Below, one piece after another: positions 4,664 to 30,864 of a stretch of DNA of 32,000 nt; the stretch's first letter is position 1, and each line of letters opens with the position of its first letter. Source of the DNA: Nostoc punctiforme PCC 73102 (lineage in GTDB: Bacteria; Cyanobacteriota; Cyanobacteriia; Cyanobacteriales; Nostocaceae); contig NC_010628.1 in the NCBI RefSeq assembly GCF_000020025.1, forward strand, positions 1,410,001 through 1,442,000. The letters are read 5' to 3'. The position numbers were made by a program, and so were the translations under genes. The notes below the pieces were generated by a model, which was given only the letters and a program-made list of their open reading frames with translations, searched no databases and was not told the DNA's origin.

Positions 4664-4673
4664 TATCTTAGTT

Positions 4674-5838: not shown

Positions 5839-5855
5839 CTTGATTTTCGCCTAAC

Positions 5856-8855: not shown

Positions 8856-9017
8856 AATTCCCTCCTCATGAGTTAAAGTGAACGCTCAAGTATAGATGGT
8901 TTTTGAGCAAGTTGTCTACAATCTTTTGGGGCATTGGGCACTTGTACTGAGCGAAGTCGAAGTATTGGGCATTGAAAAACTTTTTCTTAGTCCTTAGCTA
9001 GTACCCATTCCCTATTT

Positions 9018-10184
9018 TTACTTAACCTCGGCTGTTGCGGCTTGACGTGCTGCTTGCATGGCTTGAACAAATTGCTCAAACAAGTAATCGGCATCGTGTG
9101 GGCCAGGACTGGCTTCTGGGTGATACTGTACAGAGAATACAGGTAGAGATTTGTGACGTACCCCGGCAATGGTGCGATCGTTTAAGTTTAGATGGCTGAT
9201 TTCCACAACTGCCGTAGGTAAAGAATCTGGATCAATAGCAAAACTATGGTTTTGGCTGGTAATTTCTACCCGTTGTTGTAAACCCGCAGGCTGATTTAAA
9301 CCACGATGACCAAATTTTAATTTATAGGTTTCTGCACCTAATGCATGACCTAAAATTTGATGCCCCATACAAATACCAAAAATGGGTTTTTGACTTAACA
9401 AAAGCGCTTTGGCAGTTGCAATCCCTCCAGTGACGGCAGCTGGGTCGCCCGGCCCATTAGAAAGAAACACACCATCTGGATTGTAATTGAGGATTTCTTC
9501 TGGTGGCGTATCAGCAGGCACAACAATTACCCGACAACCGTAACTTACTAAGCGACGCAAAATGTTGCGTTTTACGCCAAAGTCAAGGGCGACAACGGTA
9601 AAGGCTTCTCCAAGATTTTCCGCAGCCTCACAGTTGAATTCCCAAGCTGGAATTGTGGGATCTGACCATTCATAAGCCGTTGATGTGGTGACTTCGCGAA
9701 CCAGATTCAATCCCGCCATGTTGGGAGCCGCCTGTACCTGTTCTAGCAATTCCGCCTCATCGAGAATAGTTGTGGAAATGCCACCGTTCATGGCTCCAAA
9801 CATCCGAATTTTGCGGGTGAGGGCGCGGGTATCTATGCCGTAGATCCCTGGTACTTGGTTTTGTTTCAGGTAGTCTGGTAAGGATTGTGTCGATCGCCAG
9901 TTACTTGGTCGTTGACAAATATTTCGGGCGATCGCACCCCGCACTTGAGGGCCATCTGATTCCTCATCTTCAAGATTAATACCAGTATTGCCTAATTCAG
10001 GATAGGTAAAAATGACAATCTGACCACAGTAACTAGGGTCAGTCAGTACTTCTTGATATCCGGTCATGCCAGTGTTGAACACCACTTCTCCGATCGCGGT
10101 TCCTGTAGCACCGAAAGACCAACCGCGATAAGTGGTTCCATCTGCCAGGACAAGTAAAGCAGGTATTGCGTCAGTCAGGGGCAT
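9018..10184 (-). CDS. carA: carbamoyl-phosphate synthase small (glutamine amidotransferase) subunit
   Basis: 388 aa. N-terminal [16 protein letters not shown] and [18 protein letters not shown]. GATase triad region GICMGHQ and [13 protein letters not shown]. Confidence 0.95.
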
Positions 10185-10193
10185 AGTAAGTTG

Positions 10194-10249
10194 GGGAATT
10201 GGGAATTGGGAATTGGGAATTGGGAATTGGGAATTGGGGATTGGGAAAA
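10194..10249. repeat. heptamer array GGGAATT x6 plus 2 degenerate copies
   Basis: Read directly, starting 10 nt upstream of the carA start codon. AGTCTCC/CCCCAGT-type repeats follow to about 10296. Confidence 0.9.
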
Positions 10250-10381
10250 CTTTTCCCCACCTAGTCCCCAGTCTCTAGTCTCCAGTCTCCAATACTGCGA
10301 TTGTTAATTATCCCATGAGTTGGGCAGTTGGGAGTTTTTAGGATCGTTAATTAAAATTAAAAGGGAATTAAACTAGCGGCA

Positions 10382-11458
10382 GTGGATTTGGCAAAGCTTG
10401 GGCAGTTAAAATTAATTATGCTTCAGTCTTTTTTATCCCGTGCAACCCTAATTTTTTTATCAAGCGCTCTAGCGGTTTTGTGTGTTGCCTGTAGTGAAGA
10501 CAAACAAAACACTGCGACTGGTGGCAATGAGCAACCCGCGCCAATTGGGGATCTGGCATCAGCACAGCCTGCCGTCAAACCACGAACACCAGCTGTTACG
10601 CCAGAAGTACAGCCGCTAGAGCCGTCTGAAAGTGAACCCAGTATTTTTGAACAGGGGCTAGACAAAGCGGTTGGCGCTTGGAGTATCAGCCGTTCTGCTC
10701 AATCTCCAGGTGATTGGATTTTGGTGGCGAATCAGTACCAGGATGCGATCGCGCTGATGCAAAGAGTCCGGCGAAAAAGCCCAGAATTTGCGATCGCTCA
10801 AACCAAAATTACTGAATATCGCCGCCAAATTAAATATGCCCAACAACAAGCTACTCCTCGCCCTGTGCGTCTTGCCGAACCAAAGAGAATAGTGGTTGTG
10901 GTGCCCCAAACAACAATTACACCAAAGTATACCTCGCCTCCACAAGAAACAAAACCGTTACCAATAGAGCCAGGTTTGCCCTCATCAGCAGTGGTGATTC
11001 CAGATCAGGAAGTATTTACAGCGCCGATTAAAAGGCGAATTGGTGGAACGCCAATTGTGGAAGTCACTTTCAATGGCCAACGAGAATTTGAGATGATTGT
11101 GGATACGGGAGCCAGTGGCACTGTCATCACCCAACAGATGGCCAATGCTTTGGGAATCGTGACAGTAGGGAGAGCTAAAGCAAATACCGCTAGTTCTAGA
11201 GCTGTAGAATTTCCTGTGGGCTATGTTAATTCGATGGCCGTTGGTGGGGTAATAGTGAATAGAATCCCAGTAGCGATCGCAGGTGCGGAACTAGAAACTG
11301 GACTTTTAGGGCATGACTTTTTTGGCAACTACGATGTCACCATCAAACGTAATGTAATAGAATTTCGCCCGCAATCGCGATCGCAAATTAATTCCCCAGA
11401 AACTCAACTAACTGCTCCAACTTCGTCCAAGCTGCCCCGCTTTGTAGGATATCCTTAG
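10382..11458 (+). CDS. retropepsin-like (clan AA) aspartic protease with N-terminal signal/lipoprotein-like anchor
   Basis: Active-site motif [13 protein letters not shown] and LLGHDFF near the C-terminus. Hydrophobic N-terminus [19 protein letters not shown] at 10418 is a more likely start than GTG 10382. Confidence 0.75.
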
Positions 11459-12476
11459 CGATTTTAATCCCTTGGGCGTGATCCAGCAGTGCGATCGTAC
11501 CTGCTACTTGCAACGCCAACGACGCATTCAACGCAACAGCATCTTGTTGCGCCTGAGTTCCCTTACCTTGGAGTACCGCCTTGAGAATTACTGCATTCTC
11601 TTGGACATCTCCACCCCGAAGCATACCTATGGGAGCAGGTGTTAGATCCAAATCTAGGGGATTAATGGTAGTTACCTGTACTTCTCCATCTGATAAAACC
11701 GCTAAGTCAGTTTCATCTCCTAACCCAGCCTCATCAAGTTTTTCTCGCCCATGCAAAACAATCGCCTTTTCCTTGCCCAAATTGTTTAATGCTTGGGCAA
11801 CAGTCGCCAAAAGTTTGGGAGTAAATAGCCCCACAACTTGCCCACTAGGACGCAAAGGATTTACTAACGGCCCCAGTAAATTAAACACCGTTCTTACCCT
11901 AAGAGTCCGCCGCAATTGGGCAACTGCTTTAAGTGCTGGATGCCAACCAGGTGCAAACAAAAAAGTGATCCCCACCTCTTGTAATGCGGCTTGCACCTTG
12001 TCACTGGATGCGCTTAAGTTTACACCCAAGGCTTCCAATACATCTGCGCTCCCCGTGAGACTTGAAGCTGAACGATTACCGTGTTTAGCAACTGGTACGC
12101 CAGATGCAGCCGCAACAAAAGCAACGGCTGTGGAAATATTAAAGGTTGATGAACCATCTCCACCCGTGCCACAGGTATCTATTACAGTGCTGAGTGCTGT
12201 TGATAGCGGGGCGTTTAGCCCGTGCTGAGTGCTAAGTGGGGAAGATTGGGATTGTAATACTTCAGCCATACCAGTCAACTCATCGGCAGAAATGCCTCTA
12301 AAGTTCAGCGCTGTTAAAATAGCCCCTGATAACTCTGGGGGAACCGCTTCACTAAGCCAACCTTGCATCAATTCAGCAGCTTGAGTACGGGATAAGGATT
12401 GGCCATCTATTAATTGTTGCAGCAGCATATACCAGCTAGCAGAGGCTTCTTGAGCAGAGATTGGAAAAGTTGTCAT
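11388..12476 (-). CDS. trpD: anthranilate phosphoribosyltransferase
   Basis: 362 aa. Motifs: [29 protein letters not shown], and NLLGPLVNP in [13 protein letters not shown]. Confidence 0.93.
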
Positions 12477-12583
12477 AGCTAAGGTTTCTGGTTTGGTAGG
12501 GTGTAGCTAGGTTGAAGGGTATGGGAGCTATCCTACCGGAAAATTGACCGCTATTAAAATTAGGTTGAAATATCAAGGCTCAA

Positions 12584-13450
12584 CTACAAAGCTGGATTAA
12601 CAAGCTTCTGATTTTTTGCTTTTTTATCCAAATAAAGTTTAATTTCGTAGTTAGTAATGAATAGCTCTTTTCCTTTCGCTGCAACACTCTGCTTATAGTT
12701 ATTCATGCCATACTGCAATTCCCATGCTGAGATATTAGCCCATTGAAAATTTTCTCGAATTTGCGATGAGTCGTCGTAGGTAATTAACCAGCGATGATGA
12801 CATTGTTGCAAAAGTTCAGCAAATCTCTTATGTTCAAAAAACGTGTGTAAGTCACCATCTTTACCATATAACTTTGATTTTGTTGCACTAAAATATGGTG
12901 GATCTAAAAATAAAAATATATTTTCTCCTGGTGATTTTAATAGGTGACTGTAATCGAGATTAGTAATTTGGACATTTTCTGATAAGATACCTTCTAATTT
13001 TTCTAATCGGTCTATCGAAGAATTAGTAAATCTTTTATGAAAAGCTTCTTGAGAAAAGCCACCTGATTCTACAGTTCCTGAAAAAGTAATTCTATTAAGG
13101 ACGAAAAAACGAACTGCTCTTTCTAAATCAGATAAACTATTGACATCTACACTAGCTAATTCTGTAAAGAGTAATTTACCATCTCTATATTTAACTTTAA
13201 TATGCCGAATTTCTTGAACTAAGTGAGCCAGATCGCATTGGGCAAACTTCCAAAATAAAAATAGTTCGCGGTTTAAATCGTTAATCCAAATCTTGATATG
13301 CGGAAATTTTTGTCTTAAATAAATAAATACAGAACCACCACCTACAAAAGGCTCTCGAAATTCTGAAAAATTATCTGGCAAGTATTCAGCTATTTGATTT
13401 ATTGCTTTTGATTTACCACCAGGATACCGCAGAGGACTTTTGATAATCAT
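12584..13450 (-). CDS. Dam-family (D12 class) N6-adenine DNA methyltransferase
   Basis: 288 aa. N-terminal LRYPGGKSK, SAM motif EPFVGGGSVF and catalytic DPPY in FLFLDPPYF. Confidence 0.88.
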   Translation of the reverse strand: MIIKSPLRYPGGKSKAINQIAEYLPDNFSEFREPFVGGGSVFIYLRQKFPHIKIWINDLNRELFLFWKFAQCDLAHLVQEIRHIKVKYRDGKLLFTELASVDVNSLSDLERAVRFFVLNRITFSGTVESGGFSQEAFHKRFTNSSIDRLEKLEGILSENVQITNLDYSHLLKSPGENIFLFLDPPYFSATKSKLYGKDGDLHTFFEHKRFAELLQQCHHRWLITYDDSSQIRENFQWANISAWELQYGMNNYKQSVAAKGKELFITNYEIKLYLDKKAKNQKLVNPAL

Positions 13451-13472
13451 TCATTATAAGGACATATTCAAA

Positions 13473-14222
13473 CTATTTCACAGGTGATACTTGTTTAGTG
13501 TTTTTATCAACTATAGTTTCTGGAAAACCATCCCAAGTTCTTCCATCAATTTCTCTACCATATTTTTTCTTTTGAATGCCTCCCCATTGTTTAAAGAAAA
13601 ATGGCACATTAGCTTGTATACACTGCTCTCTAATATCTCTTACCCATTCAATGTTCATAGGACGAGCACCTACACCAGATTCTCCACCAACAATAATCCA
13701 ATGTAGCTCATCTAAAGAAAGTGTTAAAGAACCTAAAAGAGGCTCACAAGATAAAAACCTAATTTTTGCAGGAATCTCTTTTAAAATTTCACTTCTCCAC
13801 ACCCAAGCCTGAGATTCGATACTTACTCCAGCCCAAATATTACTAGGCCATTTCTTTATGGAATTAGCTATTTTAAGCATTCTTTGTGGACGCTTAGTTA
13901 ATACCTGAAACTGATGCCAACTAGCTTCTTCCATTACATTAAATACATCTTTGATAAATTCTTCTGAAATATCATCAAGGAATAAATCACTCATGGAATT
14001 AACAAAAATTAGGCGAGGTTTCTTCCATGAAAGAGGCATTTTAAGTCTTTCATGCCAAGTTTTTACATCAAAACCTTGTTCGTAGGGATGACCAGCAACA
14101 CCTCGCCACCGCTCTGCAAAACGTTCTGCATAACAATTTTTACAACCAGGACTAATTTTATGGCAGCCAGTGGTAGGATTCCATGTAGCTTCTGTCCATT
14201 CTATTGTTGAAGATACTGACAT
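13473..14222 (-). CDS. DUF5131 / phage Gp37-Gp68 family three-Cys-motif protein
   Basis: 249 aa. N-terminal IEWTEATWNPTTGCHKISPGCKNCYAE contains C-x6-C-x2-C and matches my recollection of PF07505. Confidence 0.75.
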   Translation of the reverse strand: MSVSSTIEWTEATWNPTTGCHKISPGCKNCYAERFAERWRGVAGHPYEQGFDVKTWHERLKMPLSWKKPRLIFVNSMSDLFLDDISEEFIKDVFNVMEEASWHQFQVLTKRPQRMLKIANSIKKWPSNIWAGVSIESQAWVWRSEILKEIPAKIRFLSCEPLLGSLTLSLDELHWIIVGGESGVGARPMNIEWVRDIREQCIQANVPFFFKQWGGIQKKKYGREIDGRTWDGFPETIVDKNTKQVSPVK

Positions 14223-14265
14223 AGAATTTTACTCCCCAACTGAAACTAGGTTCACTATATTAGTA

Positions 14266-15561
14266 TTATTGTACTGCTCTAACGTAATTATCCAAAGTTA
14301 AATTGCCTCTTGCGCCCAATTCTTTAGCTTCTATAATATTTTTTTTGTGAAAATCCAGTAAAATCTCTCTATACTTAGGTCTACTTAAATAACCTAGTTT
14401 GCCAATTTCAAGAATAATAAGACTTATTACGTCTTTCAAAGTTATCCAATCTTGATTATTTCTTCGTAAAATCTCAATAATTTCAGGTCTAATTGTTTCA
14501 ATTCGCTCATCATTTTGACGCTCCCATGATTGAGTCAGAAATTTATGATTTTTTCCAGTTTTATCATCTTCAAAGAAAAGCAACTTATTTTCTTCACAAA
14601 AAAATTCGTTTAAAAACTCACCAAAAGCTTTCTGCGGATGGTTACTACCAACTACAATATTGTACTGAGGTCTAGAATCATTGTATGTTTCCTTAATTTC
14701 AAAAATAGCCACTCCTTTAAAGGTACTTTCTTTTTGAAGCCTAGACTTAAAATATTCAAGCGCCCACCTTTCAAATTTTTGTTTTTGTTCTTGATCTTGG
14801 CATTCTAGCCACTTGGGTTTCCAGTCTAAATCAGAGCTATGTCCTAATAAGTTAGTTAAATTTTGTGTGTATGTTTCGGCAGTTTTCTGGTCTTTAGAAT
14901 TTTTATAGCTTGTTTTATATAAACCTGCATGGCGAGCTACTGCGCGGTTATGAAATAGTAAAAATAATTCTCCTTTATATTTACTAACGTAATTGGCAAT
15001 AGAACATATTTGCTCAAAAGTTACTCCCTTAACTCCAAACGCATCCAGAAAAAATAACGTTGGGTATTTGTCCAATTCATTCATTATTTGAGTGAATGCT
15101 TTATCAAATCTTTGAGGTTCATAAACTTTATAGGACAATCCTTCACTTATTAAATTACAGTTACTTTTGAGTTCTTGGTTAAGGTCTTTCTTTTCCTCGG
15201 TAAAAAAACATCTTAAGGTAACACGTTCTTCAAAACTAAATATCTTAGCACATTTAAGAGCTATCAAAGGCGAACCGTCTGTATCCAAAAATTCGGTTTT
15301 GTATCTCTGCCAAAACTTCGATTGATCTACAAAATTTTCAATACCAATCCCTTCATCGTATTTGCCTGCTCCTGCAAAACCATCAACATAGTTAATATAC
15401 ATAGATTGATAGGATTTGCTACCGCCCAAATTATAGCAATAAGCCTGTATATATTTCAGCATTATCCGATGTTTGGCTGCTGACCAAGGTCTTTTACGAG
15501 CAAAAAATTTATTTGAATCTTCTGGTTGTTGATCAAATAGAGATAATTGTTTTACTGACAT
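14266..15561 (-). CDS. tcmP: TcmP-like (three-Cys-motif partner) protein with methyltransferase-like Rossmann motifs
   Basis: 431 aa. Motifs: WSAAKHRIMLKYIQAY, VDGFAGAGKY (motif-I-like FxGxG) and FFLDAFGVKG (Trm1-like LDPFG). It lies immediately upstream of the DUF5131 gene. The family assignment is from memory of TIGR04474. Confidence 0.55.
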   Translation of the reverse strand: MSVKQLSLFDQQPEDSNKFFARKRPWSAAKHRIMLKYIQAYCYNLGGSKSYQSMYINYVDGFAGAGKYDEGIGIENFVDQSKFWQRYKTEFLDTDGSPLIALKCAKIFSFEERVTLRCFFTEEKKDLNQELKSNCNLISEGLSYKVYEPQRFDKAFTQIMNELDKYPTLFFLDAFGVKGVTFEQICSIANYVSKYKGELFLLFHNRAVARHAGLYKTSYKNSKDQKTAETYTQNLTNLLGHSSDLDWKPKWLECQDQEQKQKFERWALEYFKSRLQKESTFKGVAIFEIKETYNDSRPQYNIVVGSNHPQKAFGEFLNEFFCEENKLLFFEDDKTGKNHKFLTQSWERQNDERIETIRPEIIEILRRNNQDWITLKDVISLIILEIGKLGYLSRPKYREILLDFHKKNIIEAKELGARGNLTLDNYVRAVQ

Positions 15562-16121: not shown

Positions 16122-17213
16122 TTATCGTGATGAGCGAAATATTACCCGACCTGGGGATTCTTCCTGATTAATTCGCGCATATACTCGAAGACAAGTTAAG
16201 ACTTCGCCAGGAATACCACCACAATCTAGTTGTAAGTCATCCTTGGATGAAGCACAAATATCTGCATAAAGTCCCGATAATTGGCGGATTCGCACTTCAT
16301 TACCTGCATTAATAGCTTCGTCAGCGACTTTCTTCAGGATGCGTCGTGATTCATGTTGTAGCTTTCCCCACCAAGAATAACGTTCAGCCGGTGGTACGAA
16401 TACTAAAGAATGTATGGCTTCGTCCATGTCAATCCAAGCACGGAGAATTGACAGGGGATCAGTGTTTTTTTCAGCTTTTTGGGTGCGTTGGAAGCGATCA
16501 CTTAAAGCATCAATATATTGATCGCGCTGTTCTGCTTTGGAGTGTAAAGAAATGACATCGAAGCTAAAAACGCTCTTTAAAGCATGATGTAAATCGGGGT
16601 CTATTTCAATAAAATTCATATATAAAAATAGGAATGCTGCTGGTAAATCGGATACATTACCTTGGGAAATTTTAGAAGTTGAAAGTGCCTGTTGATACAA
16701 GGTTAATCCCTGAGTTTGAACAGTACCACTAAGGCCGGGGTAGATAATTTCGTCGCGGATAAAGGGAAGTTGATAGAGGTTAGAATTATCTGCGATCGCA
16801 CCAACTTCTTCAGCTAAGTCTAAAGTGCGCGATCGCCAAGTTGCAGCCAAATCTTCTGGTAATCGCAGCAGTTTGCGTTGAATCTCATTCCACAAATCTG
16901 AGTCCGTTGTGCTTTGCAGTTGGGAATTACCCAGATAATAATTAAGTTCTGAGTCAGAATCGAAAGCTTCCCGCAGGTGAATTAGTTTTAAATCATCTGG
17001 CGCATCTTCCCAACCACTATTTTGCTGTGGGGGTGCAGGCTGCAACAGGTTATGAATTTCTTGCAGCACCTCATCGCATATTTTAGATCCTGGATCTAGT
17101 GGAAATTCTGTGCGAGCCTGATTTAAAGTAGCCTCTAGTCCATACAAACTAAACCGCAGTAGTTGTGCTAACTGTGAGTTTTCTATCTCTAATAATTGAC
17201 GCAAGTGCTGCAT
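16122..17213 (-). CDS. hypothetical protein, third gene of the dynamin/Hsp70-like cluster
   Basis: ATG at 17213 lies 5 nt after GGAGGTGA, so I prefer it to the ORF-track TTG at 17228. No motifs recognised in 363 aa. Confidence 0.7.
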   Translation of the reverse strand: MQHLRQLLEIENSQLAQLLRFSLYGLEATLNQARTEFPLDPGSKICDEVLQEIHNLLQPAPPQQNSGWEDAPDDLKLIHLREAFDSDSELNYYLGNSQLQSTTDSDLWNEIQRKLLRLPEDLAATWRSRTLDLAEEVGAIADNSNLYQLPFIRDEIIYPGLSGTVQTQGLTLYQQALSTSKISQGNVSDLPAAFLFLYMNFIEIDPDLHHALKSVFSFDVISLHSKAEQRDQYIDALSDRFQRTQKAEKNTDPLSILRAWIDMDEAIHSLVFVPPAERYSWWGKLQHESRRILKKVADEAINAGNEVRIRQLSGLYADICASSKDDLQLDCGGIPGEVLTCLRVYARINQEESPGRVIFRSSR

Positions 17214-17264
17214 AAATCTCACCTCCAAATATTACTTGTATGTGATTCGTAGTGAATTAAACTT

Positions 17265-17344
17265 GCGTTCCTCTGCGCCCCTTAGCGTTTACTCCGCGCC
17301 CCTCTGCGTTTAAAAATCTTAATTTTTTCAATGCAGAGGAACGC
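17265..17344. repeat. MITE-like element bounded by a perfect 12-bp inverted repeat GCGTTCCTCTGC / GCAGAGGAACGC
   Basis: The arms are at 17265-17276 and 17333-17344. AGCGTCTCGTAGAGAAG follows at 17353-17369. Related copies lie at 20445-20456 and 28191-28200. Confidence 0.7.
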
Positions 17345-17383
17345 ATTCGCAAAGCGTCTCGTAGAGAAGGTTTAATACAAGAG

Positions 17384-20356
17384 TTAATGTATGCCGCAAA
17401 ATGGATCGCGTTCTTTATCAACTTCATTGGGTTGCAATTCTAATTCAGCAATATAAATACATCCCTCTTCTTTTAGGCATTCCTGACTGTTTGATGTCCA
17501 GTAAGGTACTTCACCAGCGTGCATCCGCAGAATGCCTTGATCGTCAAGAGTTACACGATATTGGCAAGGGTAATCTGTTGTCACATCTGGTTTGCTGAGT
17601 GCGCCAATTCGTATCCATTTTTTGCTGTTGGTTTCCGTGTCTGTATGATAAATATAAAAAGTGTGCTGGCCAGTTTGTGGAAATGGAGGCAAGGGATTAC
17701 TAATTAACCCAATTCCTGGCTCCGTCACACCATCGCGCAGATAGTGAAATTTTTTGAACAATTTACTCCCATCATTTCCTACTTCGAATACAAGATGATA
17801 GGCATCTGGTTGATCGACAGTTGCGGACTCAATAACATTGACGGCAATATCACCATCATTTAAATCTTTATTGAAACCTTCAACAGCAATATTCCAATTC
17901 AATTTACCATCAGCAAATAGGGGTGATGTTTCAGAAACAACCGATTCCAAATCAATGCCAGGAATATCAATTAAATAATGGGGATTTCCCTGACAAAGCA
18001 ACACATTAAATTCAAGGGTTTGGTCAATCTCAAACTGAACTTTAATTTTTTTCAGGAACTCTGCCTCTTGCATTCCCAGTTTATTCATGAGGTTTTTACC
18101 GTCGAAGCTACCCCATAGTCGTAAATCTCCATCTTCGTAGTCTTGACGGTAAATAATATTAGTTAATTGGATTCCTTGCCATGCAGTACGAACCTTGGCG
18201 ACAGTTTCCCAAGGTGCAAGTTGATAGAGTTCTTGTCCAGCCTTAAATATGGTTAGTAAATCGTTACTCTGGGTTTTGCGTTTGAAGTTACAAGGCAAAT
18301 AATAAAATAGATTTTTGACATCAATTTCTAGCTGGTTGGCTCCCTTACGCAGCAAGCTTTTTGACTCTTCTGGATCGAATCTTAATCTTCGTAGTTTTTC
18401 GGCATAGCAAGCACCGGCAGAGGTGGCTAATTTGGTAAATTCCAGCACAAAAGTAATTCGTTCTGGATTCCACACAAAATATGGAGACTTACTAAATTCT
18501 TGGTAAATTTGGCGCTGTACTATGTCTAAATTACAAGTTTTTCCAGACAGAATTAACCAATCTACTTTTTGGGAATTCCAAGAATCTTTGGCGATCTCAT
18601 CGGGACGTAAGCGACTTTCCATCAATCCTTTAGCAATACCGATCGCTTCCTTAATTCCTGAAACGGTGGCTCGTTCAAACTGGTAGTTATCTAGAGTAAC
18701 GCAGATGCTATTTGGATCTTTGACTTGCAATTTAATGGCACTTTGAGTGAGCAGTTCAGAAATTTGTTGTTCAGAAAGTGTGAAGGTTAAAAGAGAATTA
18801 TCTGCTGGTGCCTTTTGCCCAAGTTTAAGTTTAGCTGCTTCTGCATGATCCCAGAGAATATAAAAGGATTGCAAGCGTTGGGGTGCTTGTTGCCAACGAG
18901 TGGGTAATACTTTCTCGGCAGTATCTAGGGCATCTTTATAAGCAATATCGCCTTCTGGATTATCTTTATCTAGACATTTTAAAAGACTGCCATTTTTGAA
19001 TTTGCCTTGTTCTAAAAAGCGTTCGTTTAACTCAGAACTAATTAAATCTTCTAGTTTTTCGCTTTCAATATCACCTGTTGTTACTGCTGCCAATAAAAAA
19101 TCTGCGATCACAACTTTTAATAATCTAAAAATTCGCAGTGTAATTAACTCACCACCTAACTGTAAATGACCGGATGAACCTAATAGTTTGGGGGTGAGTT
19201 TATAGTAACGTCCTCCTAAACCCCGGTCTTCATAATCAGCAAAAGTTGGGGTTTTGTCTTCTAAAGTCAGTTCAATTAAAGCTAAGTCTGTGGTTCCGCC
19301 GCCGATATCCAAAACGAGGACATTTTGTGACCATTTATTTCCTACTTGACGGCAACGAGTTTTGAATGACTCGATGCCAATATTCAGATTACCGCCAAAT
19401 TCTCGCCATAAAAAGAATATTGCCACAGAAACGGCTTCATCATAAGCAGTTTGGACATCATCTATCCCCAATTGCTCAACAAATTCCTTAACTTCTTTGC
19501 GAACAACTGGTGGGGCGACGGTGGGGTAGGTGACAACTGCTGTCAAAAAAGTTCCTTCTGAAAATCTACGTTGGGCGCGTTGGCGATAATCTTCAGTTAA
19601 CTCGATTAAATGCGCCCAAGCAGATTGAATCAGTTGATTTGCGGTAATTATTTTTTCTTCACCATCCAAAATAACTGAAAACGATCGCTCCTGACCAAAA
19701 TAGCGTTTGGGTGAATGGTGAAACCTGCTGATAATTTCCTTTAAAGAACTGCTGGTACCTTGAGCGATCGCTTTTTTGCGGTTATCTCTAGCTTCTCTAC
19801 CCATCCGCAGTTTTAAGTCCCCTAACTGCGAAATTTCCAACTCGCTGGGAATTTCCGTATCGCGGCGATCGATATCCAGCACAACTGGGATCAGATTTTG
19901 CGACTCTAGGGTAGGGACGCGGAACACCTCATGATAGATTTGGTAAAGTTTTTTGCTGACAGCACGGCGAAACCTCTCGCTGTTTCCTAAAGAAAGTTCA
20001 ATTTGGCGAATTGCTTCTAAAAAACGCTCTTTATTGTCACTTTCAAAAACTTCACTCAATTTGCTTGGATCTATATCCAGGTTTTTGCTAATTTCTGTGA
20101 TGAATTTTGCCCAATCATCATCGCTAACATCTGGTAAAGCAACTGAAGCGGGAGAACTCAGCCATTGTGATAAGCGATCGCGCAACCGCATTTCTTGTTC
20201 TTTTGGGAGAATTTCTGCGATCGGCACTTCAATCGGATCGAAAAGTGTAACTGTAGAGTTCGATGTACCAAAATCTAAAGCAAACCATCCCGGAAATCTT
20301 TTTTGTTGTTTCTCTGGTTCTTGATCGCTATATTTGTTGAGTTGAAAAGGGTTCAT
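17384..20356 (-). CDS. large Hsp70/actin-fold ATPase-like protein with an unknown ~350-aa C-terminal domain
   Basis: Phosphate-1 motif WFALDFGTSNS (about 20251-20290), phosphate-2 motif VLVLDIGGGTTDLAL (about 19291-19320), and the adenosine-motif-like ILSGKTCNLDIVQRQI. ATG at 20356 is preferred. The GTG at 20446 used by the ORF track lies within intergenic repeat sequence. Confidence 0.8.
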   Translation of the reverse strand: MNPFQLNKYSDQEPEKQQKRFPGWFALDFGTSNSTVTLFDPIEVPIAEILPKEQEMRLRDRLSQWLSSPASVALPDVSDDDWAKFITEISKNLDIDPSKLSEVFESDNKERFLEAIRQIELSLGNSERFRRAVSKKLYQIYHEVFRVPTLESQNLIPVVLDIDRRDTEIPSELEISQLGDLKLRMGREARDNRKKAIAQGTSSSLKEIISRFHHSPKRYFGQERSFSVILDGEEKIITANQLIQSAWAHLIELTEDYRQRAQRRFSEGTFLTAVVTYPTVAPPVVRKEVKEFVEQLGIDDVQTAYDEAVSVAIFFLWREFGGNLNIGIESFKTRCRQVGNKWSQNVLVLDIGGGTTDLALIELTLEDKTPTFADYEDRGLGGRYYKLTPKLLGSSGHLQLGGELITLRIFRLLKVVIADFLLAAVTTGDIESEKLEDLISSELNERFLEQGKFKNGSLLKCLDKDNPEGDIAYKDALDTAEKVLPTRWQQAPQRLQSFYILWDHAEAAKLKLGQKAPADNSLLTFTLSEQQISELLTQSAIKLQVKDPNSICVTLDNYQFERATVSGIKEAIGIAKGLMESRLRPDEIAKDSWNSQKVDWLILSGKTCNLDIVQRQIYQEFSKSPYFVWNPERITFVLEFTKLATSAGACYAEKLRRLRFDPEESKSLLRKGANQLEIDVKNLFYYLPCNFKRKTQSNDLLTIFKAGQELYQLAPWETVAKVRTAWQGIQLTNIIYRQDYEDGDLRLWGSFDGKNLMNKLGMQEAEFLKKIKVQFEIDQTLEFNVLLCQGNPHYLIDIPGIDLESVVSETSPLFADGKLNWNIAVEGFNKDLNDGDIAVNVIESATVDQPDAYHLVFEVGNDGSKLFKKFHYLRDGVTEPGIGLISNPLPPFPQTGQHTFYIYHTDTETNSKKWIRIGALSKPDVTTDYPCQYRVTLDDQGILRMHAGEVPYWTSNSQECLKEEGCIYIAELELQPNEVDKERDPFCGIH

Positions 20357-20767
20357 TACAGTATCCGTTTCTGTTGTTTGGTTAGTAGAGCTTTGCGTCG
20401 TAATGTGAGGAATTGAGGGATGAAATTTAAACGCAAAGATTAGCACAGAGGAACGCAGATTTTTTAGTTTTGATTTTCTATGAATTGAGGAAATCTTATA
20501 CTTAATTTGTGGCTCCTTGAAAATCTGCTGAGGAGCATCCCAATTAGAAAAAATATACAGTACTGATGCAAAAACCCTTTTAAATCTTCTTACCTTTGCG
20601 TCCTACCCTGCGGGAAGCCACTTCGTGTCTATGCGTCCTTTGCGGTTCGTTTTCTCATCCTCCTGGGTAAGTTGCAATCCCCTATGTAAATTAAATTTGA
20701 GTATTTGGCTTAGGGGAAAGATTACAAGTATTATTGAATAATTTATCCCCTATAACCTATTTTCAAA

Positions 20768-23329
20768 TCACGAAATATCTAAGTAAGAAACAGCAGCGAT
20801 TTCTGAAAGAATCTGCAACCAAGTAGGAATCGCTATCTCAGGTGGTAAGTCCCCAGCCGCCAAATATCTCAGCAAAGTTTCTTTTTTTGAAAGGTTTTGT
20901 AAACTAGGAATAATTTGATCCAAAATGCCTGCTATTTCTGAATTAATTTGCTGATTAACTTCGCTAACATACTGCACAAGATGGAGACTAGCGCTAGCAG
21001 TGATTTCATCTCGCAGCCGCAGTACTAAAAGTTGGTGATTGCTCGATCTAGATAAACCTTGGCTTTTTTCTGGTGCCCAGTCAAAGATTTGACCAACGTT
21101 GTGTTTCTCGTCTTGACGCGCTAAAGGAAAGATGGTTTCAGGTGCAACTGTTTTATCTTTACTACTGATTTCCGAGATGATTGCTTCCTTCCATTCATTA
21201 GGATCGCATCCTAGTAATAATTTGTAAAAGAGATCGGCATCTTCAAAACCAAATTTTTCTTCGATTTCTTGTTCCATATCTGGATGGAAAAATACTTGCA
21301 ATTGTTCGCGTTCTGGGGCTACATAATTTGACAATTGGTTCAACAAATCCACCACTGCTTGATGAATGCGATCGCGGGCAAAATCTTCTACTTCTTTAAC
21401 GGTTTTTTCAAATACTGGATAAAAATCATCGCTTTTAGTTGGAAGAGAACTATTTACACGATTTCCTCGATCGAATAATTTCCCTGCTGCACCTTTAGAT
21501 TCTGCCAGAGCGATCGCTCCATTGTTGGCTTTGTTGAAGAGTAAAGTCCACTGGTTCCAATTGAGGATTCTAAAAGTGAGTTCGTCTTTAACTACATCGC
21601 TGACGACAACACCGCGCCGATCTTTAAGTGGTTCTGTCCCTAAATCTTTTTGAAAATTCCTGTAGATTTTATCCAAGCTTTCGACCACAAAGCGCAACTC
21701 GATAAAGGCGGGACTGTCTCCTGTAGGGATGCCTTGCTCATGAATCTCATCTATGATGTCCTTCAGGTGATCTTGTTGCTGACTCACAACATCAGCAGCT
21801 CTGCGAGTATCTTCATACAGTTGCTTCAGACCATGAGTAGCTACGTGGGTTTGAATTAATTCCCGCAACTTACTAAGTCCCCCATCTTGACCAAAGTAAC
21901 CTAGTTGCTTCCCTAAATTACTGCGGGGATCGGTCTCTAACAGCCGTTCACTTAATAGCTCCCATTTATCTTGTAGCCGTTTAGAGCGATCTAGGTAATC
22001 AGGATAGTCCAAGTTAGCCAAAAAATCTGGTGAGCCTGCTTTGACGGTACTAGAACGTTTTGCTAATTCAGCTAGTCCCAACAGTGGCGACAGTAAAACG
22101 ATGCGGTCTTTTTGGGTTGTAAAGGCTTCTGCACCATCAATGGTAGTTTGCAGAACTTTGAGTTTTTGGAAAACGGTTTCCTCTTTTAAATGCGGACTAT
22201 CTTCAATCAGGCGATCAAGTTCTCTTTCGCCACCTTCACTGTCTAGGGGGAGTTGATCGAAACGACCTACACCTACGAGAATTAAATCTTTCAGGTCTTG
22301 TCCAGGTCGCTGCTGCTGCATCATGGTAAAGATTTTATTGGCGCGATCGCTACCGGGAGATTTACCATTTAGCAATACCAAAATTGTTTGTACTTCTGCC
22401 AGTTCCCGCAGTGACAAAAAGGTATCCCTAGCTCCCGAATTAGCAGCTCCCAATCCTGGAAAGTCGATCAGAATAAATTTAGCTGCACCTGTAAAATCCC
22501 AAATTTCCCGTGAGATTTTCACATCGATATCTACGCGACGGATGAGTGGAAAGCTATTCTGCAATAACTTTGTTGGTAGCCTCTGGGGTGGACTTGGTAA
22601 TCGGATATGCGCTGGCGGTAAATCCTCAAATTTCAGATTTTGGATTGCCATTGGCTGTTCGATCAGTTGTAGCCCCTCACGGGCGGTGGTAGCATCAATC
22701 TGGTAGTGCCCACCACACATCACTTCCCCATAAGCTTGATAAGCCCGCAGGAATAATACCAACTCCCGGAGTAAATAACGTAGCTCTAAATTGTTGCTAC
22801 TATTCCAAGCCTCCTCACACCAGCTAATAATATCTTTGCCAGAGTTGAGTTTTGATACTGGTATCGGAGGAAGTCCTGCTGCTGTCGTGCGTTTATGGGC
22901 TTCCCCTAGCATGAAGCGTAGACACTCATGTACCCCTTCGTGAGAAAGATACTCTACAGTGAAATTGCTTAATTGGGTAGTTGCAAAGTCGTCCTGCGGG
23001 ATGATATGTATTGCGGTAACATTACCTGTAGTGGGGTTTTCACTGACTGGTAAAGCATCTGCATATCCAATTAGACTGCCTAAAAGTAAAGTTTTTCCAC
23101 TACTGAATTCCCCCATCACCCCAATTTTGACAGGTGAAGTTGCAAGGTCTACAGTTTTCTGGGCAGCTGACCGCAAACGCAGGAGACAGTCATCAAGACT
23201 AGCTGGAACCCAATCTTCTTGTTTTGAAGGGTGCTGGGGCACAGAATCTATCTTTCGGAGGATGAATTCGCCGTACTCCTTAAAACGGCCCAGTTTATCT
23301 GGTTCCATAAAGTAGTTCCCGCCTAACAT
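20768..23329 (-). CDS. bacterial dynamin-like GTPase (853 aa)
   Basis: G1 P-loop GVMGEFSSGKTLLLGS (about 23091-23120), G2-like TTGNVT and G3 DFPGLGA, followed by a long helical region. An alternative start at 23308 is possible. Confidence 0.8.
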   Translation of the reverse strand: MLGGNYFMEPDKLGRFKEYGEFILRKIDSVPQHPSKQEDWVPASLDDCLLRLRSAAQKTVDLATSPVKIGVMGEFSSGKTLLLGSLIGYADALPVSENPTTGNVTAIHIIPQDDFATTQLSNFTVEYLSHEGVHECLRFMLGEAHKRTTAAGLPPIPVSKLNSGKDIISWCEEAWNSSNNLELRYLLRELVLFLRAYQAYGEVMCGGHYQIDATTAREGLQLIEQPMAIQNLKFEDLPPAHIRLPSPPQRLPTKLLQNSFPLIRRVDIDVKISREIWDFTGAAKFILIDFPGLGAANSGARDTFLSLRELAEVQTILVLLNGKSPGSDRANKIFTMMQQQRPGQDLKDLILVGVGRFDQLPLDSEGGERELDRLIEDSPHLKEETVFQKLKVLQTTIDGAEAFTTQKDRIVLLSPLLGLAELAKRSSTVKAGSPDFLANLDYPDYLDRSKRLQDKWELLSERLLETDPRSNLGKQLGYFGQDGGLSKLRELIQTHVATHGLKQLYEDTRRAADVVSQQQDHLKDIIDEIHEQGIPTGDSPAFIELRFVVESLDKIYRNFQKDLGTEPLKDRRGVVVSDVVKDELTFRILNWNQWTLLFNKANNGAIALAESKGAAGKLFDRGNRVNSSLPTKSDDFYPVFEKTVKEVEDFARDRIHQAVVDLLNQLSNYVAPEREQLQVFFHPDMEQEIEEKFGFEDADLFYKLLLGCDPNEWKEAIISEISSKDKTVAPETIFPLARQDEKHNVGQIFDWAPEKSQGLSRSSNHQLLVLRLRDEITASASLHLVQYVSEVNQQINSEIAGILDQIIPSLQNLSKKETLLRYLAAGDLPPEIAIPTWLQILSEIAAVSYLDIS

Positions 23330-24221: not shown

Positions 24222-27089
24222 GTGTTTTCCAAAAAGGTGCAGAGCTACATTAACGAAATCATGGTTCAAGAGGAAGTAATACCACAGGATGAAAAAGTAT
24301 TTTGCCAGCAGGTAGACACTTCTCCTTTGATGATTTGGATGGCTGGATGCAATGCACTTTATTGCTACTTAAATTCAAATTGGCTGGAATTTACTGGAAC
24401 CCATCTAACAAAAGGCGGGCCTGCATCTGCTCGAGTAGAAGAGATAAGCAAGATCTGGGCTTGTAGCGTCCATCCAGAAGATAGACAACGATGTAAGAAT
24501 ATATACTTAAAAGCATTTGCAACGTATAATTCTTTCCAGAGGCAATATCGCCTGCGTCGGTCTGATGGCAAATATCGCTGGATTTTAGATACGGCTGCGC
24601 CACGATTTTCAGCAGATGGCAGCTTTGCGGGTTACATCGGTTATTGTGTGGATGTGACAGAAGTGCGACCTACCCTGAGAGAAAACTGCTCGGCATCTAC
24701 AAATTCATCTCGTCGTCTTTGCAAATTAACAGAACAAAAACAGGCGGCAAAATTAAAAAAAGCACAAAAGCAACTACAAGCCGAAACTGCAAAACGCCAA
24801 GTAGTTGAATCACAGTTACGCCAAAAGACATCGGAATTTACAGCGATTTTGCAAGTGCTTCCTGATTTGTACTTTCGTATCAATGCTGATGGAAGTATTC
24901 TGGATTACAAACCAGGAAAGATTGGGAACCAATACATTTCAACAGAAGATTGTCAGGGCAAGAGTTTGCTAGAATGCCTACCGACTGCTATCTGCGATCG
25001 CTTCCAGCAAGCAATAACTCAAGTACTAGAAACTCAATCTTCAGTCAGTTTTGAATATACCTTACCGCTCCCACAAGGGAATAATAATTTTGAAGCTAGG
25101 TTATTACCATTACCAGACCAGCAAATCATAGTTCTTGTCGGTGACATCAGCGATACAGTACAAACAGCATTAATAGAAAGCGATACCAAATTTCGCACCA
25201 TTATTGAAAATGCCAATAACGTTATTTTTGCCCTGACACTTGAGGGGATATTTTCTTACGTTTCTCCAAACTGGACTGAAATTTTTGGGCATGAGATTGC
25301 AGAGGTTGAAGGCCAATCTTTTATTCCCTTTGTGCATCCTGATGATGTGCCTATTTGTGCAGATTATTTCCAAAGAATTGCGACAACAACCGAAAAGCAA
25401 GACGCAATTGAATATCGGGTAAAACACAAAAATGGCAGTTGGCGATGGCATACAAGCAACTCATCTGCTATTAGAGATGCCAATGGTAATATTGTAAACT
25501 TCGTTGGTATTTGCTATGACACCACCGATCGCAAACAAGCAGAAGTTGCACTCAGAGAATGTGCCCAACGGGAAGCATTACTCAATCGTCTTTCTAACCA
25601 GATTCGAGCTTCGTTGGATCTCAATTATATTGTGGAAACCGCAGTGCGGGAGATCCGTGACTTATTCCAAATTGATCGCTGCGCCTTCTTTTGGTATCGG
25701 CAAGAGGCTGAAGTTACTCATTGGGAGAAAGTATACGAAGCGAAAAGTTCCTTTTTACCCTGTCTAGTTGACGAGCAAGAAGCAACTAGTGCAGAAATTG
25801 AACTCATCGCCGCCAAAACCTTGAATAGAGAAATTATCCGCATTAATGATGTTGAGACTGTAACCGATTGCACTGCACAGCTATTTTTGCGGGATTTTGG
25901 TTTCACTGCTTTTATGTCGCTACCTGTACACACCAAATCTGGCGAAATAGGCACATTTAGCTGTGGTTCTTGTGGTGGCTTCCGGCCTTGGCTAGACAAC
26001 GAAGTAGAATTACTACAGGCAGTTACAGTGCAAATAGCGATCGCCATTGACCAAGCTAAACTCTACACCCAAAGTCGCATTGCTGCTCAAACTGCCCAAG
26101 ACAAAGCCCAGCAATTAGAAGCAGCATTACTAGAACTTCAACAGACCCAAACGCAACTGATTCAAACCGAAAAAATGTCCAGTTTGGGACAATTGGTTGC
26201 AGGTATTGCCCACGAAATTAATAATCCCGTCAATTTTATCTACGGCAATATTAGCCACGCTCGTGAATATACTAAAGATTTATTGCACTTGGTAGAACTT
26301 TATCAACAGAGTTACTGCCCACCAACACGAGAGATTCACCAACAAATCTACAACATAGATTTAGACTTTCTCAAGCAAGATTTGCCTAAAATTCTGGATT
26401 CTATGAACATGGGAGCCGAACGCATTCGGCAGATAGTCTTATCTTTACGCAATTTTTCTCGCCTTGATGAAGACGGCACGAAAGCAGTAGATATTCATGA
26501 AGGTATTGATAGCACCTTACTGCTGTTGCAAAATCGTTTGAAAGCCAAACTAGGATGTCCCGAAATCCAAGTAATCCGAGACTATGGCAACCTACCACCA
26601 GTAGTCTGTCACGCAGGACAGATGAATCAGGTGTTTATGAATTTGTTAGCAAATGCGATCGATGTTTTAGAAGAGTCATTTGTCACTTGTACTGAGCGTA
26701 GCCGTACCACTTCGTGGAAGCAAGCTACGCGTAGCGTCTCGCAGAGAAGTATTAGTCACTTGTCATTAGTAAATAACTCTAAACAAAGGACAAATGACCA
26801 AGAACAAATGACTTCTCCCCAGATTCGCATTCGCACCCTTATCAAAGAAGACCGTGTAATCATTAGCTTTACCGACAATGGCCCAGGCATGACTGAAGAA
26901 GTACGCAAACGCTTATTTGACCCCTTCTTTACTACAAAATCCGTGGGTAAAGGCACGGGTATGGGTTTGTCAATTAGCTACCAAATTGTCGTCCAAAAAC
27001 ACGGCGGACAAATCCAGTGTATTTCAGCACCAGGAGAAGGCGCGGAGTTTATCATCATGATTCCACTACATGAGCAACCTTCAACATAA
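24222..27089 (+). CDS. multi-sensor (PAS/PAC x3 - GAF) histidine kinase
   Basis: PAC-like motifs YRLRRSDGKYRWILDT and YRVKHKNGSWRWHTSN. GAF region DRCAFFWY...VQIAIAIDQAKL. HisKA EKMSSLGQLVAGIAHEINNP. N-box NLLANAIDVLEE, G1 TDNGPGM, G2 GKGTGMGLSISY. The start is uncertain (GTG 24222 or ATG 24252). Confidence 0.9.
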   Translation: MFSKKVQSYINEIMVQEEVIPQDEKVFCQQVDTSPLMIWMAGCNALYCYLNSNWLEFTGTHLTKGGPASARVEEISKIWACSVHPEDRQRCKNIYLKAFATYNSFQRQYRLRRSDGKYRWILDTAAPRFSADGSFAGYIGYCVDVTEVRPTLRENCSASTNSSRRLCKLTEQKQAAKLKKAQKQLQAETAKRQVVESQLRQKTSEFTAILQVLPDLYFRINADGSILDYKPGKIGNQYISTEDCQGKSLLECLPTAICDRFQQAITQVLETQSSVSFEYTLPLPQGNNNFEARLLPLPDQQIIVLVGDISDTVQTALIESDTKFRTIIENANNVIFALTLEGIFSYVSPNWTEIFGHEIAEVEGQSFIPFVHPDDVPICADYFQRIATTTEKQDAIEYRVKHKNGSWRWHTSNSSAIRDANGNIVNFVGICYDTTDRKQAEVALRECAQREALLNRLSNQIRASLDLNYIVETAVREIRDLFQIDRCAFFWYRQEAEVTHWEKVYEAKSSFLPCLVDEQEATSAEIELIAAKTLNREIIRINDVETVTDCTAQLFLRDFGFTAFMSLPVHTKSGEIGTFSCGSCGGFRPWLDNEVELLQAVTVQIAIAIDQAKLYTQSRIAAQTAQDKAQQLEAALLELQQTQTQLIQTEKMSSLGQLVAGIAHEINNPVNFIYGNISHAREYTKDLLHLVELYQQSYCPPTREIHQQIYNIDLDFLKQDLPKILDSMNMGAERIRQIVLSLRNFSRLDEDGTKAVDIHEGIDSTLLLLQNRLKAKLGCPEIQVIRDYGNLPPVVCHAGQMNQVFMNLLANAIDVLEESFVTCTERSRTTSWKQATRSVSQRSISHLSLVNNSKQRTNDQEQMTSPQIRIRTLIKEDRVIISFTDNGPGMTEEVRKRLFDPFFTTKSVGKGTGMGLSISYQIVVQKHGGQIQCISAPGEGAEFIIMIPLHEQPST
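26676..26812. repeat. composite small-dispersed-repeat insertion carried in-frame inside the HATPase domain
   Basis: Inverted GTCATTTGTCA-type termini at 26676-26691 and 26783-26812. Inside are CTTGTACTGAGCG (also at 8941-8953) and AGCGTCTCGCAGAGAAG (16/17 match to 5735 and 17353). The boundaries are approximate. Confidence 0.7.
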
Positions 27090-29923: not shown

Positions 29924-29997
29924 TTTCGCAATACAGCGATTTTCAGTTGAGTAGACTATTTAAAAAAGACCTAACCCCCAGCCCCTTCCCTTGTAGG

Positions 29998-30864
<867 letters not shown>

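Follow-up and report, generated by a model that had tools for sequence, protein, structure and literature searches.

Three co-oriented genes lie on the minus strand of a 32,000-nt stretch of the Nostoc punctiforme PCC 73102 genome (contig NC_010628.1, positions 1,410,001 to 1,442,000), hereafter the window, to whose first letter the coordinates of Table 1 refer. They encode, in this order, a dynamin-family GTPase, an Hsp70-fold ATPase and a 363-amino-acid (aa) protein, and are referred to here as the trio. The coordinates, sizes and order that an initial annotation of the window had given for the three open reading frames (ORFs) were all recovered by ORF calling, and the motifs that it had read in the two NTPases, GEFSSGKT and DFPGLG in the GTPase and DFGTSNS and DIGGGTTD in the ATPase, were confirmed by translation. 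The locus is real and conserved, and its pairing of GTPase and ATPase is known bioinformatically; new are the homology of the two NTPases to SrfB and SrfC, the conserved third gene, the range across phyla, a TIR-bearing variant and the lineage-specific loss of an N-terminal domain from the ATPase.

Table 1 Features of the trio, with positions in the window
Feature	Position	Strand	Basis and remarks
Dynamin-family (SrfC-like) GTPase gene	20768..23329	minus	ORF, Pfam Dynamin_N, profile against PDB sequences
G1/P-loop GEFSSGKT	23090..23113	minus	translation; residues 73-80
G3 DFPGLG	22448..22465	minus	translation; ~215 aa past G1
Candidate G4 GRFD (variant of [NT]KxD)	22256..22267	minus	translation; assigned by position
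GTPase-ATPase gap	20357-20767	minus	411 nt; short repeats and promoter-like site
SrfB-like Hsp70-fold (ASKHA) ATPase gene	17384..20356	minus	990 aa; product identical to WP_234711052.1
Phosphate-1 DFGTSNS	20255..20275	minus	translation; D28 and G30 invariant in 49 diverse sequences
Phosphate-2 DIGGGTTD	19286..19309	minus	translation; D350, G352, G354 and D357 invariant
Beta-rich C-terminal domain of the ATPase	17387..18343	minus	residues 672-990, ~319 aa; DSSP of the model, tail RDPFxGxH
ATPase-third gene gap	17214-17383	minus	170 nt; stable hairpin and GGAGG ribosome-binding site
Third gene	16122..17213	minus	363 aa; product identical to ACC79925.1 (Nostoc punctiforme PCC 73102)

Products of the three genes and the gaps between them

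Read from its first ATG the GTPase comprises 853 aa, and its true start is likely M8 (nt 23308; 846 aa), which is preferred because the homologues, 77-95% identical across the Nostocales, begin there (MEPxKL). That this protein is dynamin-like, as first annotated, stands up at the level of the family. Pfam Dynamin_N matches the protein itself at 9.9e-7 and 29.4 bits (cutoff 27) over model positions 1-45 of 168 only, the P-loop region, and it is matched by 11 of 12 diverse family members (best 6.3e-9); the best matches of the family profile among PDB sequences are bacterial dynamin-like proteins (DLPs), with Campylobacter DLP2/DLP1 (5owv) at 3.4e-5 and 1e-3, Nostoc BDLP at 0.014 and SynDLP at 0.016. 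Across phyla, G73, G78 and K79 of the P-loop are nearly invariant and the G2 region PTTGNVT is conserved, and D289 and P291 of G3 are invariant in the family. The distance from G1 to G3 is ~100 aa in the alignment of Campylobacter DLP2 versus ~215 aa in the window GTPase, which therefore carries a large insertion (roughly 130 aa) between G2 and G3. The G4 motif would be GRFD, in which R replaces the K of KxD; its F357 is nearly invariant, and it aligns with SRFD/GKFD in relatives.

Beyond the G domain, the profile search returned no PDB sequence matches to the GTPase, and a hydropathy scan of the protein found no transmembrane or paddle-like segment (highest 19-residue value 1.36); by the same measure, no transmembrane or strongly hydrophobic segment is present in any of the three proteins of the trio. 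The C-terminal tail of the cyanobacterial GTPases, IPTWLQILS, is conserved and moderately hydrophobic, but outside cyanobacteria it is not conserved. Measured against the characterised set of Nostoc BDLP (Npun_R6513), Campylobacter DLP1/2, SynDLP, B. subtilis DynA and LeoA/Eleos, the window GTPase is alike in its P-loop, G2 threonine region and DxxG motif and in its best PDB sequence matches, but the similarity is confined to roughly 60-100 residues, the 130-aa insert separates G2 from G3, a paddle or transmembrane segment is not evident and the GTPase is paired with an Hsp70-fold ATPase instead of another DLP. Its clade also differs from the ‘Tandem A/B’ BDLP pair of the same genome. In Micromonospora carbonacea (sampled locus L007, positions 7737-9947), the homologue has lost both the P-loop (AEGDDDHV for GEFSSGKT) and DxxG, with a large deletion, and is thus a pseudo-GTPase variant in a three-gene operon that is still kept; no other sequence in the family alignment has a degenerate P-loop.

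Structurally, the assignment of the second protein to the Hsp70 fold is well founded. Its AlphaFold2 model, computed from a 49-sequence alignment, is confident (predicted local distance difference test score (pLDDT) 90.3, predicted template modelling score (pTM) 0.89), and the top 50 Foldseek matches in the PDB are all Hsp70s (best 4jn4, E 1.1e-17), the best being full-length, ATP-state DnaK and BiP at 14% identity. All ASKHA catalytic motifs are conserved: D28, K217, E307, D350, G352, G354 and D357 are invariant in the 49 sequences, and the adenosine motif reads LSGKT. The two phosphate motifs lie 322 aa apart, against ~186 aa in DnaK, and the nucleotide-binding domain (about residues 20-670) exceeds that of DnaK, roughly 380 aa long, by ~270 aa of insertions, of which the main ones are helical (52-145 and 433-582). 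The C-terminal domain is modelled mainly as strands with pLDDT mostly >85, and its RDPFxGxH tail is conserved throughout the family. A 14-sequence profile of this domain found no match in the PDB or Pfam, including no Hsp70 substrate-binding domain, and the earlier description of an unrecognisable domain in place of the substrate-binding domain thus holds at the sequence level; Foldseek alignments do run past the nucleotide-binding domain at a template modelling score of ~0.5, and a remote structural resemblance to the Hsp70 C-terminus is possible.

Family models agree in placing the protein outside the ordinary chaperones. The Pfam HSP70 match covers model positions 185-226 only, HSP70 and NCBIfam DnaK matches amount to ~40 residues around DIGGGTTD, and the NCBIfam DnaK models score 11-16 bits where their cutoffs are 331-822, so that a curated DnaK/HscA/HscC match fails. 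The possibility, raised at the outset, that the protein might prove to be an ordinary DnaK paralogue did not materialise: sequence searches detect no standard substrate-binding domain, and the window ORFs scanned include neither a J-domain nor a GrpE gene. Compared with canonical Hsp70s (DnaK, BiP, Hsp110), then, the ATPase has the nucleotide-binding fold and the complete catalytic motif set, but is separated from them by its 14% identity, its insertions, a tail of RDPFxGxH instead of EEVD, the want of a recognisable substrate-binding domain or lid and that of a J-protein or GrpE partner at this locus. FcmB, a recently described actin-like family of N. punctiforme (PMC12645912), was considered as a relative and rejected, since it derives from ParM and has no kinship with the 990-aa protein.

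At 50% identity the ATPase family falls into 410 clusters, and most relatives bear an extra N-terminal domain of 150-300 aa; those of Anabaena, Nodularia and Nostoc PCC 7107, at 1130 aa, have one of ~140 aa. The ATPases of the clade of N. punctiforme and N. commune measure 990-991 aa and are without this domain, of which tblastn found no remnant in the 411-nt gap. The N. punctiforme lineage has, on comparison with these relatives, lost the domain, with a repeat-bearing 411-nt spacer now in its place. One relative on a metagenome contig (ERZ27299534; locus L014, positions 3391-11868), 46% identical to the window ATPase, has an N-terminal TIR domain (4e-21) and a long repetitive region; its trio is ordered ATPase, third gene, GTPase and is followed by a DDE transposase gene.

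The 363-aa protein is a conserved, family-specific, mostly helical partner of the two NTPases. Its N-terminal part is helical and its C-terminal half conserved, and between them runs a variable, low-complexity and often proline-rich linker; the conserved motifs of the protein are DEAxHSLVxLPP..SWWG and LRVYA..PGRV. The first reading of the locus could assign no domain to it, and neither could we: scans against Pfam, NCBIfam and PADLOC gave no match, the AlphaFold2 model is poor (pLDDT 61, pTM 0.32), and Foldseek of this model against the PDB returned only noise (best E 0.45).

The intergenic lengths of 170 and 411 nt assume database-supported start codons. The gaps of 155 and 320 nt proposed initially had been counted from longest-ORF TTG and GTG starts and are superseded, while the description of them as filled with repeats was borne out: both contain short repeats and hairpins (e.g. 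TGCGTTCCTCTGC/GCAGAGGAACGCA), and the repeats are short and dispersed. An Rfam scan of the locus matched no family in either gap, and a sequence scan found no site resembling an intrinsic terminator in either. The promoter-like site of the 411-nt gap consists of sigma-70-like hexamers (minus strand, 20766-20738). In the 170-nt gap, the hairpin has a predicted RNA folding energy of −46.6 kcal/mol (z = −2.95) and its stem is not followed by a U-tract, and GGAGG stands 8 nt upstream of the ATG of the third gene. Elsewhere the spacing is much tighter, with the GTPase and ATPase genes of other lineages 0-60 nt apart or overlapping, and trio gaps outside the actinobacteria of ~20 nt. Because the actinobacterial genes overlap and the others lie ~20 nt apart, the long gaps of N. 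punctiforme are derived.

Conservation of the operon and its kinship with srfABC

Synteny was examined in 16 loci other than those of srfABC for which DNA was available, drawn from Cyanobacteria (Nostoc, Rhizonema, Fischerella, Scytonema), Actinobacteria (Micromonospora, Nocardia, Streptomyces, Virgisporangium), a planctomycete and unassigned metagenome contigs. The GTPase gene adjoins the ATPase gene in all 16, and the third gene is beside the ATPase gene in 14, the exceptions being the planctomycete locus, where it is missing, and a metagenome contig (L020) with a gene for a TPR protein instead. In actinobacteria the stop and start codons of the trio overlap, and one locus has the order permuted with the trio still complete. 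One further contig, represented by called genes only, had no dynamin-matching gene beside the ATPase gene. The suggestion that the genes belong together could have fallen on a lack of synteny in other genomes, and it did not: since the same neighbourhood recurs across phyla, the trio is no chance neighbourhood.

Among many genera of the Nostocales, all three proteins are 67-98% identical and their locus tags adjacent. The named hosts further include Okeania, Planktothrix, Nocardia, Streptomyces, Micromonospora, Virgisporangium, Dactylosporangium, Actinocrinis and a planctomycete, and filamentous forms (Nostocales, Okeania, Planktothrix, mycelial actinobacteria) predominate among the organisms named. 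A search with the ATPase of 72,556 plasmid and 50,697 phage records gave no match. Within N. punctiforme, long residence of the trio, first proposed from its HIP1 content, is upheld by flanks that are syntenic in Nostoc and by conservation of the trio at least equal to that of its neighbours. The HIP1 sequence (GCGATCGC) occurs at 7 sites in the trio and at none in the low-GC (0.33) cassette at 12584-15561; the whole window has 30 sites versus 0.2 expected by chance. The comparison of these genomes establishes the trio as what is, by sequence, one functional module, an ancient and vertically inherited operon of filamentous bacteria.

Several loci carry further genes. In Virgisporangium (L013, positions 12914-13990) the trio is followed by a gene for a DO-GTPase2 family GTPase, the only one among the relative loci, and in Streptomyces (L012, positions 12571-13509) by one for an APH/ABC1 kinase-like protein. 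The metagenome contig L020 (positions 6777-10263) encodes a TPR protein and an ADP-ribosylglycohydrolase. In Scytonema sp. HK-05 (L005, positions 4098-7424), a gene for a 1108-aa NB-ARC and TPR protein (STAND NTPase) lies antisense between the GTPase and ATPase genes.

The initial annotation had taken the coupling of a DLP with an Hsp70-like ATPase to be unreported. This was mistaken, as the pairing had been published as a neighbourhood remark; a homologous GTPase/ATPase pair exists, besides, in SrfC and SrfB. Jilly et al. (2018, Front Plant Sci, PMC5827413) sorted cyanobacterial DLPs into six clades, one of which, ‘Chaperone’, was defined, purely bioinformatically, as a DLP with a DnaK-domain gene downstream. 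Their table of this clade has 11 members, all heterocystous, omits N. punctiforme and A. variabilis, and includes Cylst_0498 and Nos7524_3124, with the downstream gene annotated ‘Virulence factor SrfB’. The gene family and the neighbourhood, a dynamin-like GTPase gene with a ‘DnaK-domain’ gene directly downstream, are the same as ours. The homologues in Cylindrospermum stagnale PCC 7417 are 81% (GTPase, P0302) and 73% (third gene, Cylst_0501) identical, and by its gene order and its orthology to listed members the window locus is an unlisted member of the ‘Chaperone’ clade. On the third gene, the non-Hsp70 C-terminal domain, the kinship with SrfB/SrfC and the occurrence outside cyanobacteria, the 2018 study is silent. 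A literature search found no experimental work on the trio genes, and nothing that tied SrfB/SrfC to dynamin or Hsp70, or dynamin together with Hsp70 to phage defence.

Evolutionarily, the closest comparison outside the family is with srfABC, the operon of SsrB-regulated factors in Salmonella and of the ‘SrfABC toxin’ in Xenorhabdus, represented in our data by the canonical operon of Erwinia (L008) and by further copies on Klebsiella, Cereibacter and Gluconobacter plasmids. Both systems have three genes, SrfB being a ~1000-aa ATPase of the Hsp70/actin fold and SrfC a P-loop GTPase of ~800-900 aa, with G1 (GxSQAGKS), a long G2-G3 insert, G3 (DLLDFPG) and G4 (TKFD) in the same order as in the window GTPase. 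Alignment by hhalign of the window ATPase with a four-sequence SrfB alignment gave a probability of 97.5% (E 6e-12) over 291 columns, which is homology of the core only; phosphate-1 and phosphate-2 of SrfB are ~316 aa apart, close to the spacing in the window ATPase. Pfam SrfB (PF07520) matches the ATPase at 1.6e-5 and 23.6 bits, below its cutoff of 27.1, over model positions 509-596 of 992, where true SrfB scores 1297 bits. For the GTPase, hhalign against SrfC gave a probability of 60% (E 8.5e-5) over 70 columns; Pfam PF10139 (Virul_Fac) did not match the window protein even at E 10 and matched one of 12 relatives at 0.0043, and the iterated GTPase profile recovered SrfC proteins as the sole ORFs from outside the family.

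The remaining parts differ. SrfA is unrelated to the 363-aa protein (hhalign probability 0.2%), the genes run srfA-srfB-srfC as opposed to GTPase, ATPase, third gene, and SrfB is without the ~315-aa beta-rich C-terminal domain of the window ATPase, which found no match in the SrfB C-terminus. srfABC is, moreover, proteobacterial and often borne on plasmids (142 plasmid records), where vWA, ABC-transporter and SUMF1 genes come after it; in three plasmid loci (L016, L017, L018), it runs on into a conserved series of genes for a hypothetical protein, a vWA protein, an ABC ATPase, an ABC permease and a SUMF1/EgtB-family enzyme, so that SrfABC may belong to a larger system. The motif and profile evidence indicates that both NTPases of the trio share ancestry with SrfB and SrfC, the GTPase link being the weaker, and that the trio does not belong to the SrfABC family itself. 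That it constitutes a single SrfB/SrfC-like operon is, in our judgement, very probable.

Two other kinds of system were compared. Against the PADLOC models the ATPase and the 363-aa protein gave no match and the GTPase a weak one to LeoA (3.6e-4 over 49 residues), so that neither Eleos (LeoA/LeoBC) nor any other catalogued anti-phage system is represented by the trio. The DO-GTPase/GAP1 conflict systems with HSP70 components described by Kaur, Burroughs, Iyer & Aravind (2020, eLife, PMC7159879) resemble the trio in pairing a GTPase with an Hsp70-family protein, in joining a constant core to variable accessory or effector parts and in being enriched in multicellular bacteria; their HSP70 is, however, a canonical one with GrpE and DnaJ, and dynamin goes unmentioned. 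Membership in these systems was rejected, no window protein having a Pfam match to DO-GTPase1/2 or GAP1.

Surroundings of the trio in the window

Three minus-strand genes make up the HIP1-free cassette. Their products are a Dam-type N6-adenine methyltransferase, a DUF5131 protein and TcmP, a ‘three-Cys-motif partner’ protein with matches to two PADLOC candidate systems, PDC-M30A and PDC-M41A. Three other Nostoc genomes (L001, L002 and L006) have Dam next to the trio, and one of them (L001) has DUF5131 there. On the other side, ~0.9 kb upstream of the GTPase gene, a 955-aa PAS/GAF histidine kinase is transcribed divergently (24222-27089); two of the three other Nostoc loci (L001, L006) have it in the same place, but at 73-81% it is far less conserved than the trio. 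Farther away, runs of intergenic heptamer repeats occur at 10194-10247, 132-189 and 5802-5827 (GGGAATT, complement CCCCAAT/CCCAATC, and ACGAATT), and a 51-nt unit is repeated three times in tandem (7090-7242; 88-100% identical) inside another 363-aa minus-strand ORF (6245-7336), a predicted 17-aa protein repeat. Inverted repeats of 53 nt (29982-30034 and 30828-30880; 85% complementary) flank ~0.8 kb with overlapping ORFs on both strands, and this segment looks like a small mobile element or miniature inverted-repeat transposable element (MITE).

Candidate roles of the trio

Functionally, we favour a stress or conflict role over membrane remodelling and posit, with a probability of roughly 0.4, that multicellular bacteria have in the trio a constitutive, nucleotide-gated module for responding to stress or conflict, in which a core of two NTPases is combined with lineage-variable accessory parts. 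In such a module the GTPase would be a GTP-dependent self-assembling switch or scaffold, and the ATPase an ATP-gated clamp that would grip and let go of either the third protein or the GTPase by means of its C-terminal beta domain and conserved RDPFxGxH tail; output or targeting would fall to the variable N-terminal domain of the ATPase, which measures 150-300 aa in most relatives, is a TIR domain in one and has been lost in the N. punctiforme lineage. Pointing in this direction are the TIR-fused, 46%-identical relative in a permuted trio beside a transposase gene, the variation of the downstream accessory genes (DO-GTPase2, APH/ABC1-like kinase, ADP-ribosylglycohydrolase, AAA_15), the STAND NB-ARC/TPR gene lodged within the Scytonema operon, the proximity of the Nostoc trio to a Dam/DUF5131/TcmP cassette that matches PADLOC candidates, and a taxon bias that resembles the one in Kaur et al. 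(PMC7159879).

Several observations weigh against this role. The trio is 78-98% identical across genera of the Nostocaceae, tracks phylogeny and is conserved at least as well as flanking housekeeping genes; the ATPase is absent from the plasmid and phage records searched; PADLOC matched neither the ATPase nor the third protein, and the GTPase only through the weak LeoA match; and the N. punctiforme proteins have no recognisable effector domain. The TIR fusion is a single cluster among ~150 representatives, and a scan of seven other long or atypical members of the ATPase family found no extra domain. The link of the GTPase to SrfC is weak in sequence, the third protein has no similarity to SrfA, and the clamp mechanism is drawn solely from the Hsp70 fold. 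The conflict-system hypothesis put forward at the start gains some circumstantial support from the TIR-fused relative and the variable accessory genes, and is weakened by the strong vertical conservation in the Nostocales and the absence from plasmids and phages.

A bolder version would make the trio and srfABC two branches of one hitherto unrecognised superfamily that pairs an SrfC-like, dynamin-type GTPase with an SrfB-like Hsp70-fold ATPase and spans Proteobacteria, Cyanobacteria, Actinobacteria and Planctomycetes. The trio would then be an immune or programmed-cell-death-type module in filamentous bacteria, with the NTPase core sensing or thresholding a signal and swappable ATPase N-terminal domains (TIR in one lineage) or variable downstream genes as the output. 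We offer this version tentatively and consider it less likely than not.

Among the alternatives, membrane remodelling or repair fares best, as a possibility to which we give limited credence. On this account the GTPase would assemble on the cytoplasmic, septal or thylakoid membrane, the ATPase would regulate assembly and disassembly, loosely as Hsc70 does with dynamin and clathrin, and the third protein would be an adaptor. By sequence, the G domain is indeed closest to the membrane-active Campylobacter DLP1/2, Nostoc BDLP and SynDLP, a link of this sort was proposed for the ‘Chaperone’ clade by Jilly et al. (PMC5827413), the high conservation and vertical inheritance in the Nostocales fit a housekeeping role, the cyanobacterial GTPases have the conserved, moderately hydrophobic IPTWLQILS tail, and the Streptomyces operon stands beside a gene with a Septum_form domain. 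However, hydropathy shows neither a transmembrane segment nor a strongly hydrophobic paddle in any of the three proteins (the GTPase peaking at 1.36), the tail is not kept outside cyanobacteria, and Micromonospora retains the operon though its GTPase homologue has lost the P-loop and DxxG. Actinobacteria (Streptomyces, Nocardia, Micromonospora) and a planctomycete have the operon but no thylakoids, which counts against membrane remodelling and makes the thylakoid-specific form of the idea, entertained in the initial annotation, unlikely; a dedicated thylakoid-biogenesis machine and a protein-folding chaperone are both less likely than the module of stress or conflict response.

Improbable, in our view, is a role in development or cell architecture in multicellular filaments, such as septum or cell-junction upkeep or the differentiation of hormogonia, akinetes or spores, with the Hsp70/actin-fold ATPase forming assemblies. 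It would suit the mainly filamentous or mycelial nature of the named hosts and the presence of the trio in many heterocystous cyanobacterial genera, and DLPs do act in the sporulation septation of Streptomyces. Yet the structural matches of the ATPase are to Hsp70s in all of the top 50 cases and not to polymerising actins (MreB, ParM), the window shows no link to known developmental genes, we found no publication tying the trio genes to development, and the actin-like FcmB of N. punctiforme belongs to a different, ParM-derived family.

We give very little credence to a reading of the trio as an SrfABC-type toxin or virulence factor, secreted against eukaryotic hosts or competitors. Such a function is suggested by the homology of the ATPase, and weakly of the GTPase, to SrfB and SrfC, by the report that Xenorhabdus SrfABC is a tripartite cytotoxin for which all three parts are needed (PMC6950479), and by the NCBI name ‘virulence factor SrfB’ on many cyanobacterial homologues. 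It is opposed by the unrelatedness of the third protein to SrfA, the different gene order, the additional C-terminal domain of the ATPase and window-protein scores below the Pfam cutoffs for SrfB and SrfC; the trio family is, besides, chromosomal in many free-living Nostocales, in contrast to the plasmid records of srfABC, SrfB and SrfC themselves lack an assigned function (PMC11942329), and the NTPase motifs point to an intracellular machine. Finally, an ordinary DnaK paralogue, a general folding chaperone beside the GTPase gene by accident, is largely refuted in spite of its NCBI label ‘molecular chaperone’ and its Hsp70-like nucleotide-binding fold, given 14% identity to Hsp70s, HSP70/DnaK family matches over ~40 residues around DIGGGTTD, a substrate-binding domain undetectable by sequence, a scan of window ORFs that turned up neither a J-domain nor a GrpE gene, and a GTPase linkage kept across phyla.

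Since N. punctiforme is genetically tractable, its operon allows experiments to be done directly on a dynamin-type GTPase paired with an Hsp70-fold ATPase; such pairs are widespread, the ATPase family alone making up some 410 clusters at 50% identity. Through the SrfB/SrfC link, results on the trio could explain the 25-year-old ‘virulence operon’ of Salmonella and Xenorhabdus, and the reading of both as one superfamily of paired NTPases would, if true, provide a mechanistic framework for SrfB and SrfC, which have long lacked an explanation. The filamentous bias and the TIR-fused relative make the trio a candidate for a regulated NTPase conflict system of the kind proposed for multicellular prokaryotes; if it should instead be a housekeeping machine of membranes or development, it would bring to light a new type of partner for bacterial dynamins.

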